A stretch of 12,071 nucleotides of DNA, taken from assembly GCF_003334335.1 (NCBI RefSeq), contig NZ_QOWQ01000062.1; one strand, 5' to 3'. This document shows, in pieces, positions 803 through 11,951 of this stretch; the stretch's first letter is position 1; each line of letters starts with the position of its first letter. The position numbers were made by a program, and so were the translations under genes. The notes beneath the pieces were generated by a model. The model was not told where the DNA came from and did not search any database. It worked only from the letters and a program-made list of their open reading frames with translations. The DNA is from Escherichia coli (lineage in GTDB: Bacteria > Pseudomonadota > Gammaproteobacteria > Enterobacterales > Enterobacteriaceae).

Positions 803-875
803 GGCTGAACTCCTGAAATAGCTGTGAAAATATCGCCCGCGAAATGCCGGGCTGATTAGGAAAACAGGAAAGGGG

Positions 876-1082: not shown

Positions 1083-1355
1083 AAAAACTCCTGCCCGTAA
1101 GCTGGGCTGCTGAACATATAGAGACTTCTGCGCGTATTCAGGCGGTGGATGGCCGCCGGTTGTCATAACTAAGCCGCCTCGTTGAAGCGACTAAGGTATG
1201 AAATGTTGAGTTGATTTCAGCTGGTCACACCGACGTTCACGCGTCCGTTTCACCCCTCGCACTCCCCGAAGCCTGCTGAAATTCAAACTGCGGATCTAAG
1301 CGGTCATCGCAACGGTGAATCAGGTGGTTGCCGTATCGTTGTGTTGTTGCGATGA

Positions 1356-1410
1356 ACCTATTTAAAACTATAGTTGTTTTACCGTCAACAACAAAAGTTG
1401 TTTTATTGGT
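1356..1410 (-). promoter_or_regulatory. OL/PL-like leftward early promoter with overlapping operators
   Basis: On the - strand: TTGACG (rc of 1383-1388), a 17-nt spacer, then TTAAAT (rc of 1360-1365). Operator-like palindromes with AACAAC/GTTGTT half-sites include AAAACTATAGTTGTTTT (about 1364-1380) and AACAACAAAAGTTGTT (1388-1403). A near-identical 17-mer also sits in the OR region (4032-4048). Confidence 0.55.
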
Positions 1411-1524
1411 TGTTTTAGATATAACTGGTTGTATTTAGGATGGATTTATTTTGTGACTTGAATCGCATAGCGATAACTGAAGCGAGGTTATGGTGGTTTT
1501 TTGAGCGGTTTGTGTGATGAGGGG

Positions 1525-1557
1525 AGGCAAAAGAAAACCCGGCACGGTGGCCGGGTT
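1525..1557 (-). terminator. Rho-independent terminator ending the cI-led operon (equivalent of lambda tImm)
   Basis: Stem CCCGGC (1538-1543) / GCCGGG (1550-1555) with a 6-nt loop. On the - strand the hairpin is followed by TTTTCTTTTG. It lies 35 nt downstream of the stop of the 1591..2418 gene. Confidence 0.7.
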
Positions 1558-1590: not shown

Positions 1591-2418
1591 TTAAACTTGG
1601 GGAAGTATTTTTTTTGCAAAATCAATAGTTTCTTTGTGGTTGGATGCAGGTATATGATTTATTTTCTTAGCATCCATAGTTCTCTTTATGATGTCAATAA
1701 CTTTGCTTTGGCCTGAGTTTGGTGATTCAGGAGTTTCAATTGTGAATAAAATGTCATCAAGTGAAAGCAGGTTTTCTTCTGCTGCTCGAGTTATTCTCAT
1801 CACCCAAGTATCACTATGCTCCATCATTTTTCCTGGTTCAGCTTGAGTGAATGCCAGAGGTTTGATGGCACATTGGATCCTGTCATGCTTCTTGGCGACC
1901 AATGGCATTGAGAACTTTGCGAAATACCCATCAATGGTTGCTTGTTTGAAGACGTTCTTCAATCCATCTATTCTATCTATACTTCGTTTTAGCTCTCTGG
2001 CTAGAACATCTTCACGGCGCTCTTTTGTGTAGTCAGAGTGGTTTACATATTTATTGTAAATGCGGGCCAGCTCTTCTTTTGGGTTTTCGCTGAGAATCAC
2101 TCTCGTAGAACTGAACTGAAAAATTGATTCTTTTTTGTTTGTAAAATATCTGAAGAATTGTGCAAGTTGTTGATGTCCAACAATCTGGGTCGCATGCATT
2201 TTTGCGAACTGTAGTTCTCTTTGTATTGAGTCTTTTGCTACAGGGAAAATACAATCATCATGGAAAAAATTCTTTACACGAGAGTCATTTCGCTTTGTGA
2301 GCTGGAAATCAAAGTAATTTTCTTTTGGCGCGCACAGAAGTACGCCTATGTTTGCGAACTCTTCAGTCTCCGCATAAGGCGCATAGCGAACGATGCTATA
2401 TAGGCATGGAGTTGTCAT
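1591..2418 (-). CDS. DUF3037-like protein of unknown function, second gene of the rex-position cassette
   Basis: ORF track 1591..2433 begins at a TTG. The first ATG (2416-2418) overlaps the upstream gene's TGA (ATGA overlap) and is preceded by GGAG. The N-terminal motif CLYSIVRYAPYAETEEFANIGVLL resembles the DUF3037 signature as I remember it. Visibly AT-rich compared with flanking phage core genes. Confidence 0.5.
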   Translation of the reverse strand: MTTPCLYSIVRYAPYAETEEFANIGVLLCAPKENYFDFQLTKRNDSRVKNFFHDDCIFPVAKDSIQRELQFAKMHATQIVGHQQLAQFFRYFTNKKESIFQFSSTRVILSENPKEELARIYNKYVNHSDYTKERREDVLARELKRSIDRIDGLKNVFKQATIDGYFAKFSMPLVAKKHDRIQCAIKPLAFTQAEPGKMMEHSDTWVMRITRAAEENLLSLDDILFTIETPESPNSGQSKVIDIIKRTMDAKKINHIPASNHKETIDFAKKILPQV

Positions 2419-3164
2419 TCTATTGCGCTCCAAAATTCATCACAATCACCTTTGTCTAGCGTAGTGCAGACAAAAGGTAAAAACTCCTCATCTACTATCC
2501 ACTCTTCTGGAATTTCGTCAAGGATAGCAGGAAGCTTGTGTAAACTGTTAACGACCCTCTGGCGGTACTCTACGCGATCCACTAAATCATATTGCCATTT
2601 GCGGTTACCAGGGCCGTACACGTGCACAGAAAAATCTTCAGGTCCAGCATTCTGATCAAATGAGAGATTATGGTCAATCAGATAATACTTATCGTTACTG
2701 ATGTCATAAAGGATGTTAACGTTTCCACCTTTGTCAGTAAGCGTTCTGTCTGCATTTAATATCCATTTATCAAAAACATAGATTAATTTTTGCTGTTCGA
2801 CTGGGATGATCGTTTCGTTTCTTGACTGCGTAAACGTTAACGCTATTGCACCGTCAATGAACAATGAAGCAAAGGCATATCCTGTACAAATTTGTTGCTG
2901 CAGATCAGGTGAGTACTCTATAAGTTCCTCTGGCACAAATACGATTTTAAAGTCAGGTAAAGGAAGGCCGATATCATTAGCCAAACACGCCGAAATGAAC
3001 TCAGCTAAGAGATTTTTCGGGGGCATTGATGGTTTTGACTTCAAAACATACAACTGCCCATCATCACATTTGCAAAGAAATGGCTGAGTGGAACCTTCAT
3101 TGATGCGACGTATTACTTCAACGACATTAGGTATTGCACTATTGCTGCTCGCTACGCACTCCAT
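2415..3164 (-). CDS. HipA-like kinase-fold protein (putative Ser/Thr kinase), first gene of the rex-position cassette
   Basis: ORF track 2415..3167 begins at a GTG; the adjacent ATG at 3162-3164 has an AAGGGT Shine-Dalgarno. The motif FDKWILNADRTLTDKGGNVNIL resembles the HipA-family catalytic loop (h-h-N-x-D-x-H/R ... N), and LIDHNLSF could be the DFG-equivalent metal-binding motif. The family call is from memory, not a search. Confidence 0.45.
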   Translation of the reverse strand: MECVASSNSAIPNVVEVIRRINEGSTQPFLCKCDDGQLYVLKSKPSMPPKNLLAEFISACLANDIGLPLPDFKIVFVPEELIEYSPDLQQQICTGYAFASLFIDGAIALTFTQSRNETIIPVEQQKLIYVFDKWILNADRTLTDKGGNVNILYDISNDKYYLIDHNLSFDQNAGPEDFSVHVYGPGNRKWQYDLVDRVEYRQRVVNSLHKLPAILDEIPEEWIVDEEFLPFVCTTLDKGDCDEFWSAIE

Positions 3165-3286
3165 CACTAACCCTTATGTGATTCAAGTCTTCCATCTCAT
3201 TACTCCGCATCTCAAAGAGCGGTTTAACACTGCGTGTTTAAAGAAAAACAACAGGCCTATTGCTGTAACTGTTTTTTAGCCTCACT

Positions 3287-3976
3287 TTAACCATGCTTCC
3301 TATATGTCTGCGGCATGCTCCCAATAACCTTACCGAAGATGAACACCCGGTTCATCTCGTCTTTCTCGATCGGGTCCCACGGTGAGTAGCTTTTGTTATC
3401 AGAGATGACCAGCAGCTTATCCTTCATCATTTGCAGGCGCTTTACATGGGCTGTGTCGTCGTACAGAAACGCATAGATACCATCACCGTCGAAAGATTTA
3501 ACTGTGATATCAACGAACAGCAGATCACCTGGTTCGATCGTTCCTGACATGCTGTCACCACGCACGTTAATGATGCGGATATTTTCCGCCTTCCTACCAT
3601 CGAACATGTGACGAGCATCGTCAAACGAGTACTCAACCGAGCGTAGAACTTCTACAAACTCACGGTTGATGACTCCCGGCCCAGCACTGACTTCTATATC
3701 AAGAACGTCAATCTTGAAGTATTTGGAATGGCTGACAGTTGATTGTATTGGTTGCACTGTACTGTCTGACATATTTCCAACGCCAGAAGATAACCATTCT
3801 GCGCGCACACCCAAAGCGTTCGCGATCTCCACGATTTTAGTTGTTTGATTAGCTTTCCCTGTTTCGATTTTCTGAATAGCAGCTTGGCTAACCCCGACCA
3901 AATCCCCAAGCGCCTTTTGTGTAAGGCCTCGCGCTAATCTGGCTTCTTTAAGTCTTTCTGAGAGTGTTGTTTTCAT
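3287..3976 (-). CDS. cI: CI-type prophage repressor: N-terminal HTH (XRE family) plus C-terminal S24 LexA-like autopeptidase domain
   Basis: Translation from the internal ATG: MKTTLSERLKEARLARGLTQKALGDLVGVSQAAIQKIETGK (HTH), then GDSMSGT (Ser nucleophile motif) and AHVKRL (catalytic Lys). The ORF track's 22-codon upstream extension is unlikely. No Shine-Dalgarno precedes the ATG, which fits a leaderless PRM transcript as in lambda. Confidence 0.85.
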   Translation of the reverse strand: MKTTLSERLKEARLARGLTQKALGDLVGVSQAAIQKIETGKANQTTKIVEIANALGVRAEWLSSGVGNMSDSTVQPIQSTVSHSKYFKIDVLDIEVSAGPGVINREFVEVLRSVEYSFDDARHMFDGRKAENIRIINVRGDSMSGTIEPGDLLFVDITVKSFDGDGIYAFLYDDTAHVKRLQMMKDKLLVISDNKSYSPWDPIEKDEMNRVFIFGKVIGSMPQTYRKHG

Positions 3977-4080
3977 AGTCCAAATGTACAACCAAGGTTT
4001 TATTCCATCAAACGAAAATGGTTGTTGACTAAAAACAACCATAGTTTTAATCTTGATTCAAATTAACCACGGAGGTTGTT
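3977..4080. promoter_or_regulatory. OR region with divergent PRM (leftward, cI) and PR (rightward, cro) promoters and operators
   Basis: PR candidate on +: TTGACT (4025-4030), 17-nt spacer, TAATCT (4048-4053). PRM candidate on -: TTGATG, 17 nt, TACATT ending about 6 nt before the cI ATG. Operator-like repeats: 17-mer AAAACAACCATAGTTTT (4032-4048) and inverted repeat GGTTGTT...AACAACC (4020-4040). Confidence 0.6.
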
Positions 4081-4311: not shown

Positions 4312-4380
4312 ATTTCCATTTCACGCTCTTTAACAATAAGCAATCAACTTAACAGTCAATTCAAACTAAAGGAGTCAATT

Positions 4381-11060: not shown

Positions 11061-11145
11061 AGTCAGAGATAACAATCAACTAATACTGTTTTGTTGATTT
11101 TTGCTTGTAATTGGCGTTCTGGTCTGAGTTTTGTGGAGTAAGTTG

Positions 11146-11526
11146 ATGCGTGATATTCAGATGGTTCTTGAGCGTTGGGGAGCGTGGGCTGCAAGTGGTA
11201 ACACCGGGGTGGACTATTCTCCGATCGCTGCCGGATTCAAAGGACTTTTACCATCTGCCACTAAACCACGTCCGGCCTGCTGCGATGATGACGGACTTAT
11301 CATTGAAAACTGTCTTGCTCGTCTGAAGCAGAAAAAACCTGAGGAGTATTCGCTTCTCATTGCTCATTATTTGTTGCGAATATCAAAAAGACAGATAGCC
11401 AGGACGAGAAAGAAAAGCGAAAAAGCAATACGAATTGAGATGCAGATAGCCGAAGGGTTTATTGACGGATGTTTGTCTGTGCTGGGGGTAAGACTGGAGA
11501 TGGACGACTGGCTGCTAAAAAAGTAA
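11146..11526 (+). CDS. Q: Late antiterminator Q (QuuD/phage 82-type)
   Basis: From the ATG at 11146 (GGAG Shine-Dalgarno): MRDIQMVLERWGAWAASGNTGVDYSPIAAGFKGLLPSATKPRPACCDDDGLIIENC... resembles DLP12 QuuD. Followed by a tR'-type terminator. Confidence 0.8.
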   Translation: MRDIQMVLERWGAWAASGNTGVDYSPIAAGFKGLLPSATKPRPACCDDDGLIIENCLARLKQKKPEEYSLLIAHYLLRISKRQIARTRKKSEKAIRIEMQIAEGFIDGCLSVLGVRLEMDDWLLKK

Positions 11527-11593
11527 AAAATGATTAGTGCGGTCCGCAAAAAGTATGTCAGTATGTTAAGAGTGGTTACTTCGCCACACAGCT

Positions 11594-11620
11594 TAAACCC
11601 GCCGCGAGCGGGTTTTTTTA
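11594..11620 (+). terminator. Strong rho-independent terminator (tR'-like), probable end of the short PR' transcript that Q reads through
   Basis: AAACCCGC-CGCG-AGCGGGTTTTTTT at about 11594-11620: GC-rich stem followed by a 7-T run, about 70 nt downstream of the Q stop. Confidence 0.8.
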
Positions 11621-11741: not shown

Positions 11742-11939
11742 ATGCTAAAACAGCAGGATATGACAGAAACCGCCAGAGTGGTGTTTAATGAATTAAGTGC
11801 CACCGAACCGGCGACAGTCGGGGAGATTGCGCAGAATACTTACCTTTCACGCGAACGCTGCCAGTTAATACTGACCCAGCTGGTTATGGCGGGTCTGGCA
11901 GACTATCAGTTCGGTTGTTACAGACGCCTTCCGCAGTGA
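11742..11939 (+). CDS. Hypothetical small protein (65 aa) in the post-Q late-region moron position
   Basis: ATG at 11742 within track ORF 11649..11939. Translation MLKQQDMTETARVVFNELSATEPATVGEIAQNTYLSRERCQLILTQLVMAGLADYQFGCYRRLPQ. An intrinsic terminator overlaps its stop codon. Confidence 0.45.
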   Translation: MLKQQDMTETARVVFNELSATEPATVGEIAQNTYLSRERCQLILTQLVMAGLADYQFGCYRRLPQ

Positions 11940-11951
11940 AGGCTTTTTTAT
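11926..11951 (+). terminator. Rho-independent terminator overlapping the stop of the small ORF
   Basis: Stem GCCTTC (11926-11931) / GAAGGC (11938-11943) with a 6-nt loop, followed by TTTTTTAT. Confidence 0.55.

Follow-up and report, generated by a model that had tools for sequence, protein, structure and literature searches.

The DNA that we have analyzed, a stretch of 12,071 nucleotides referred to in what follows as the window, contains the immunity and early region of a lambda-like phage and matches Escherichia phage PhiR5_1 at 100% identity over the part that was compared. On the minus strand, and in order of transcription, cI is followed by genes for a HipA-like kinase and a DUF3037 protein, a terminator, OL/PL, a leader of ∼190-270 nt, kil (1082-876), gam and bet, while the plus strand carries cro, a long cII-like gene, O, P, ren, the nin genes and Q. 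The stretch between PL and kil is the non-coding 5′ leader with which the early-left (PL) mRNA of this N-less lambda-like phage begins. The features to which we refer are as follows.

3287-4042, minus strand: cI, first in transcription order
1591-3167, minus strand: HipA-like kinase and DUF3037 genes, in the rexAB position between cI and OL
1557-1536, minus strand: terminator of these cargo genes
1360-1406, minus strand: OL operators and PL promoter, the operators being inverted copies of those of OR
1388-1383 and 1365-1360, minus strand: PL −35 (TTGACG) and −10 (TTAAAT) elements, spacer 17 nt
1305-1353, minus strand: hairpin 1, AUCGCAAC/GUUGCGAU, 8-9 bp, closing a C-rich 32-nt loop
1204-1319, minus strand: central cassette (∼100-115 nt), the conserved core of the leader, its 5′ part overlapping the 3′ arm of hairpin 1
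1286-1191, minus strand: arginine-rich pseudo-ORF with a TTG start, ...VKRTRERRCDQL..., in frame with kil and judged non-coding
1215-1281, minus strand: domain 2, outer helix UUUCAGC/GCUGAAA around a G-rich interior
1232-1245, minus strand: apical hairpin of domain 2, GACG-CGUGAA-CGUC
1163-1201, minus strand: hairpin 3 (extended), UCAUA.CU.AGUCGCUUC-AAC-GAGGCGGCU.AG.UAUGA
1135-1166, minus strand: start of the leader ORF, MTTGGHPPP..., with a GGCGG/CCGCC hairpin at 1157-1141 that coincides with the GGHPPP codons
876-1082, minus strand: kil, which encodes an FtsZ inhibitor of 68 aa, has a GGAG of its own (1091-1088) and is the left operon's first real gene

The HipA-family kinase/DUF3037 pair is annotated HipA/HipD in PhiR5_1. 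The same position is taken by a SIR2 gene in O157 strain Z570 and by an ASCH-domain gene and others in the phages 4A7 and Perceval, so that the slot looks like a swappable cargo site for defence or toxin genes. The ∼95 nt between the cargo terminator and OL (1441-1535, minus strand) are kept in the hetero-immune relatives 4A7, Perceval and strain 800 and are not conserved in the O157 type. At the other end of the window the gene for the Q antiterminator is followed ∼70 nt on by a strong intrinsic terminator at 11595-11615 (gene and terminator at 11131-11615, plus strand), with a second at 11926-11943, which is the usual PR′/tR′ layout for late-gene control.

The PL promoter and an untranslated leader in an N-less phage

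The assignment of PL holds. The OL segment 1362-1406 is an inverted copy of OR 4007-4050, the −35 and −10 elements are in place, and an identical layout is found in two phages that carry put RNA antiterminators, UPF_BP1 and L168 (numbers of this type denote loci from our surveys). A generic promoter scan missed PL because the second position of its −10 element is a T. Alignments establish that the operator segment has been exchanged among hetero-immune relatives with retention of the flanks and of the leader. The predicted transcript start, A1353, falls within the first arm of hairpin 1. A preliminary description of this DNA, prepared from the letters alone, had placed PL here, with an untranslated leader directly downstream, a transcript beginning almost at a 9-bp inverted repeat and no N gene, and all four of these statements hold, the third for the predicted start.

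With respect to the last of these, N and Nun are annotated nowhere in the 51-kb PhiR5_1 genome, and tblastn searches with lambda N, P22 gp24, phi21 N, phi80 N and HK022 Nun returned no matches, the first three query sequences being possibly inexact. The only ORF inside the leader (1286-1191) does contain KRTRERR, an arginine-rich string that recalls the motif of lambda N, and it forms an open frame of 139 codons through to kil in 4A7 and Perceval, the product being annotated as 'Kil' in the latter; in addition, its three commonest polymorphisms are synonymous in this frame. We nevertheless give almost no credence to the notion that the leader encodes a short arginine-rich N-like peptide (1286-1191, or the 139-aa 'Kil' of Perceval) as the missing antiterminator. 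Substitutions are distributed 8/5/5 over codon positions 1/2/3, a TAG stop (1193-1191) is present in 19 of 72 variants, this plaque-forming phage included, and there are three frameshifting indels. No Shine-Dalgarno sequence precedes the TTG start, no PHROG or NCBIfam family matches the first 68 residues, PGAP does not call the frame, and the leader offers neither a boxB-like hairpin nor an upstream boxA. Failing these conservation tests, the ORF leaves the leader untranslated, and the codon-position pattern, the stop frequency, the frameshifts and the lack of a family match together lead us to reject a hidden N gene. Equally, we consider it very unlikely that the leader acts as a nut-like site for the recruitment of host Nus factors, paired with a boxA downstream of cro. 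What suggests such a pairing is an exact match to the 13-nt boxA consensus, CGCTCTTTAACAA, at 4324-4336 (plus strand) just after cro, the only exact match in the window, followed 5 nt later by AATCAACTTAACA (4342-4354), which resembles leader positions 1216-1204 and shares with them the 13-mer AAUCAACUyAACA. Against it, the leader strand has no boxA within 3 mismatches and its predicted folds contain no GC-stem pentaloop hairpin of the boxB kind. The boxA module, always at the cro-cII junction, accompanies the leader at no more than 30 of 71 loci, and 4A7, with the same leader, lacks it; on this ground we reject a nutL/nutR pairing via boxA and the 13-mer. The 13-mer itself looks like a module junction, because a similar AAUCAAAC-type junction also lies 3′ of putL in put-type phages.

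The leader is common. It is present in 2231 of 5426 complete E. coli genomes (∼41%) at 95-100% identity, O157:H7 included, with no PGAP annotation at the leader in E. coli genomes, and it is found as well in 16 isolated phages, all from E. coli. Literature searches on the phage group, on O157 prophage small RNAs and on N-independent leaders turned up no mention of the element. A search of Rfam with the leader gave no matches at gathering thresholds and only chance-level ones at E values up to 10; this result is uninformative with regard to put RNAs, since a scan of the put region of HK022 was also empty, that is, Rfam holds no put family.

Two end hairpins in a mosaic leader

The leader is a genuine composite regulatory leader, and the data establish its anatomy and the boundaries of its modules: it is a mosaic of three parts, namely hairpin 1, a cassette confined to E. 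coli and the 5′ half of hairpin 3. Folding stability in excess of chance is weak, with z scores of −0.63 for the whole leader, −1.3 for hairpin 1 alone and +0.94 for the core (1319-1204), the strongly structured piece being 1203-1135 (z = −4.78). The proposal in the preliminary description that the leader is structured is only partly borne out, the TTCAGC domain giving z = −2.05 in the window allele, and the lower limit of 1167 that had been chosen bisects the strongly structured element at 1203-1135, which had gone undescribed. Both end hairpins are well supported, and covariation is established for each.

The 9-bp inverted repeat noted earlier was recovered exactly, with CATCGCAAC at 1305-1313 and GTTGCGATG at 1346-1354 enclosing 32 nt. 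A helix that starts at +1 and closes a 5′ domain is predicted in five types of leader, those of the window, S9-5, L168, the O157 type and L118. In S9-5 the equivalent helix is AUCGAAAC/GUUUCGGU (z = −4.2), related to that of the window by a compensatory change of C-G to A-U, and in L168 it is AUCGAA/UUCGAU; PL leaders of put-carrying phages thus retain the helix. Of the positions that vary within E. coli, three still allow pairing and three, all of them rare, do not. On these comparisons we regard the helix as real. With the predicted +1, it would start 0-2 nt from the 5′ end of the mRNA in the window and in the four other types. In bacterial mRNAs of the ompA type 5′-terminal stem-loops stabilize the message, and by analogy with these hairpin 1 would provide 5′-end protection or folding insulation. 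Most likely the helix at the first transcribed base would shield the 5′ end from 5′-end-dependent decay and would also close off the 5′ domain so that downstream RNA folds independently.

Hairpin 3 is widely conserved. It buries both an SD-like GAGG (1180-1177) and an AUG (1166-1164); at its base UCAUA pairs with UAUGA, and the 3′ arm always starts with GAG, ∼10 nt before the invariant AUG at 1166. The same architecture recurs in 14 divergent variants with at least six wholly different apical stems, and within E. coli seven paired positions vary: at six of them all variants retain a standard pair, while at the last (1175 G>A) the pair is lost in one of 72. It is therefore a conserved, covarying helix that contains SD and AUG, as expected for an operator that sequesters a start codon. 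The absence of a U tract rules it out as a terminator. Since hairpin 3 is common to leaders of the N type, the put type and the window type, being found in phi80, HK225, Enterobacter and Citrobacter, its module is unrelated to the absence of N.

The AUG within hairpin 3 opens a leader ORF whose first nine codons are near-invariant and whose remainder diverges, although seven of those codons were fixed by the search seed so that only the following PP constitutes independent evidence. Elsewhere the ORF encodes peptides of 21 and 16 aa; here it continues in frame into kil (96 aa), and in some variants it is frameshifted. Alignments with the families PHROG 294 and NCBIfam NF008465 cover just the final 68-77 residues, and PGAP annotates kil as a gene of 207 nt. 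Neither hairpin 3 nor the leader ORF has a match in Rfam, PHROG or NCBIfam. A hairpin and MTTGGHPPP ORF placed ahead of a toxic gene look like a translational gate with a leader peptide, in which the hairpin that holds GAGG and AUG would gate translation of the leader ORF and, through it, of toxic kil. The module is well supported, appears to be undescribed and is spread over prophages of several enterobacterial genera, where a strong intrinsic terminator usually precedes it immediately. Another set of phages (L139, L143, L149, L158, L163, L179, L190-L192) has, ahead of the terminator and ∼60-110 nt upstream of hairpin 3, a GC-rich conserved element, CACGCGCCGGGCGUGGCUAAACAUCCCGGCAC, which may be a structured RNA.

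The central cassette and the putL slot

The homology of the O157-type leader to the window begins only at ∼1319, the upper limit of the cassette. In order to estimate constraint we compared 71 distinct leader variants from IMG/VR. The cassette has a diversity π of 0.028 with 0.19 segregating sites per site, as compared with 0.048 and 0.29 at third codon positions of kil, 0.003-0.007 and ∼0.11 at first and second codon positions of kil, and 0.024 and 0.34 in the kil-gam spacer. Because the variants were gathered with a 16-nt seed that itself lies in the cassette, diversity is somewhat underestimated; in an independent scan seeded on the downstream hairpin, every locus with this type of leader except L153 has the exact 16-mer. 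Constraint on the cassette is thus moderate, stronger than at synonymous sites and short of the near-invariance of put.

The second pairing of the preliminary description is present and in fact extends to 7 bp (TTTCAGC at 1215-1221 with GCTGAAA at 1275-1281), as is the internal GACG/CGTC pairing at 1232-1245, but it finds no backing from covariation and common polymorphisms disrupt the inner helices. The outer helix of domain 2 shows one change that is compatible with pairing, from A to G, which leaves a G-U pair. A C or A in place of U1269 (U/C/A in 35/32/5 variants) disrupts the inner CUUCG/CGAGG helix in 37 of 72 variants, and G1253>A disrupts the other inner helix in 6. Outside the window allele, with its z of −2.05, the other common alleles of domain 2 give −0.9 to −1.5, with refolding of the inner helix P2. 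Among leader variants within E. coli no covariation was detected in the cassette, and indels of 1 and 5 nt occur. No diverged homologues of the cassette emerged from 50,697 phage records at E values up to 10, and a scan of species-representative genomes seeded on the downstream hairpin yielded 13 loci, none with the cassette.

The preliminary description had suggested that the leader might be a put element or another RNA regulator of early leftward transcription. In HK022, HK639 and related phages, put RNAs are cis-acting antiterminators that bind the zinc-binding domain of the RNA polymerase β′ subunit (PMC9378689). We assembled by blastn a set comprising HK022 putL and putR and the put RNAs of UPF_BP1, phiEt88, CobraSix, S9-5, HK639 and PdC23, whose alignment shows covariation in 7 of 18 pairs, and built from these 8 RNAs a covariance model (R1) that was searched with filters off. 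Neither the leader of the window nor those of 4A7 and Perceval gave a match to the model, whose best hit overall had E = 0.65; the put RNAs of L152, L155 and L168, positive controls outside the training set, were recovered at E = 1e-23 to 4e-23. In blastn searches with putL none of the relatives of this phage matched. Nor does the leader contain the put consensus, which consists of two adjacent stem-loops with GAACGGC...GUCGG...GGCGGG...AGG..GA...GGCAAU. Covariance model and blastn together reject homology of the cassette to put and, with it, the idea that the leader is a put element, and the absence of put is thereby established along with that of N and Nun. The analogy with paired putL and putR elements fails also, as a profile search (nhmmer) revealed no second copy of the cassette in the whole phage genome, the PR side included. 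A second copy is not universal among put phages, in that the HK639 record annotates one put only, putL on the left; in its right operon, after a cII-like gene, the same record has an 'M3-like RNA' (L211 5411-5470; HK639 37910-37969), to which the window leader bears no resemblance.

It is the position of the cassette that connects it with put. To survey this slot we searched IMG/VR with a seed taken from the module that directly precedes kil. At most of the loci an upstream gene is followed by a strong intrinsic terminator, the U tract of which continues into UUUCAUACC, and then by hairpin 3. In L152, L155 and L168 the order is PL, a closed 5′ domain of ∼60 nt, putL and hairpin 3, with no terminator. 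The operators and promoter of L168 are the same as those of the window, and the two sequences are identical through PL and approximately the first 20 transcribed nt, unrelated for ∼150 nt, and identical again from UUCAUACC onward. Because the flanks are identical in this alignment, the window cassette and the put cassette are natural alternatives, and because L168, L152 and L155 have putL in the slot the analogy with HK022 and HK639 rests on data. The sharing of the putL slot is the main positive evidence for the put-like idea, evidence of position only. The ∼100-115-nt cassette would have replaced the putL cassette of sister phages between the same flanks. A purely passive spacer fails to explain it, given a constraint in excess of that on synonymous sites and its placement exactly in the put slot. 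We consider the cassette to be a constrained element and the sole visible candidate for a substitute of N or put.

Function of the leader and relation to known systems

Our scan located no intrinsic terminator within the leader (1083-1355), and the window lacks the true terminator that phi80, HK225 and the majority of the other loci have directly 5′ of hairpin 3. Two terminator-like sites lie further down the left operon. One, a weak hairpin, separates kil from gam (835-852, minus strand); the other, a strong one, falls between the orf61-like gene and the TraR/orf73-like gene (L001 773-791, minus strand), in a segment that 179 phage records share at 95-99% identity, N-encoding Stx phages and lambda-type phages among them. 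Expression of orf73 in lambda is driven by PL (PMC9239242). That a strong left-operon terminator is common to N-encoding phages suggests that some read-through device would be useful here. In the right operon we find no strong intrinsic terminator before Q and, as described above, no copy of the cassette, so that the phage appears able to run this essential operon without a dedicated early antiterminator.

How, then, might the leader work? We hold, with confidence that is about evenly balanced, that it is built of three independently inherited RNA modules and acts mainly post-transcriptionally, through stability of the message and translational gating of the leader ORF and kil. It is possible, if rather doubtful, that the cassette (∼1319-1204) is a new cis-acting processive antiterminator RNA, analogous to putL and unrelated to it in sequence, that would attach to RNA polymerase during transcription and take it past the left-operon terminators. 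In favor of this possibility are the location between the same PL and hairpin that flank putL in L168, L152 and L155, the presence in phi80 of an N gene and terminator right upstream of the same hairpin, the 16 phage isolates that are N-less yet plaque-forming, the downstream terminators held in common with N-dependent phages, the moderate constraint, and a precedent for action in the left operon only, provided by the HK639 record with putL alone and an unrelated 'M3-like RNA' on the right. It must be set against the lack of any resemblance to put, the lack of covariation, inner helices that common polymorphisms break, a stability that is within chance both for the core (z = +0.94) and for the other alleles of domain 2, the tolerance of 1- and 5-nt indels, and the lack of diverged homologues for a structure test and of a second copy. 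An untranslated RNA of this length ahead of a toxic gene, with a hairpin 1 loop that reads as C-rich and G-poor, could also attenuate transcription by way of Rho, or give rise to a processed small RNA, and so limit or time the expression of kil. The C-rich loop is not conserved in the O157-type leader, the leader has no terminator-like 3′ end and Rfam offers no match, and we regard such a role as unlikely.

N-less lambdoid phages are common, and the put slot is filled here by a different, single-copy and moderately constrained RNA; for another N-less phage a 2025 survey ventured a mere guess of 'put-like' (PMC12315714). Were the cassette an antiterminator, it would represent a second, structurally unrelated class of cis-acting antiterminator RNA in phages, replacing putL by cassette exchange, and it would drive N-free expression of the early-left genes (kil, Red, xis/int) in one of the commonest prophage families of E. 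coli. The natural swap of cassettes between the window and L168, with identical flanks, is a ready-made experiment.

Comparison with known systems places each module in context. Like nutL-N of lambda, the leader stands at the start of the PL operon, and in phi80 the N gene and its terminator are immediately upstream of the same conserved hairpin 3; unlike nutL-N, it has no N homologue and no boxA or boxB, and its arginine-rich ORF is unconserved. Hairpin 1 resembles the ompA-type stabilizers in starting at the predicted first nucleotide and in being kept across leader types with unrelated loops, and differs from them in that the same helix may serve in put phages to insulate the folding of put. 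Hairpin 3 has the properties of translational-operator hairpins with leader peptides, a class to which polyproline stalling peptides also belong, with SD and start codon buried and a short ORF of conserved start and variable tail upstream of kil, except that the leader ORF has no stop here and reads into kil. Finally, the cassette is unlike put in having no sequence or structure similarity to it, none of the invariant put motifs, no supported two-stem architecture and a far higher polymorphism. It is like put in belonging to an N-less lambdoid phage and in lying just downstream of PL after a 5′-terminal helix and, as with the put of HK639 as annotated, it is present in a single copy in the left operon only.
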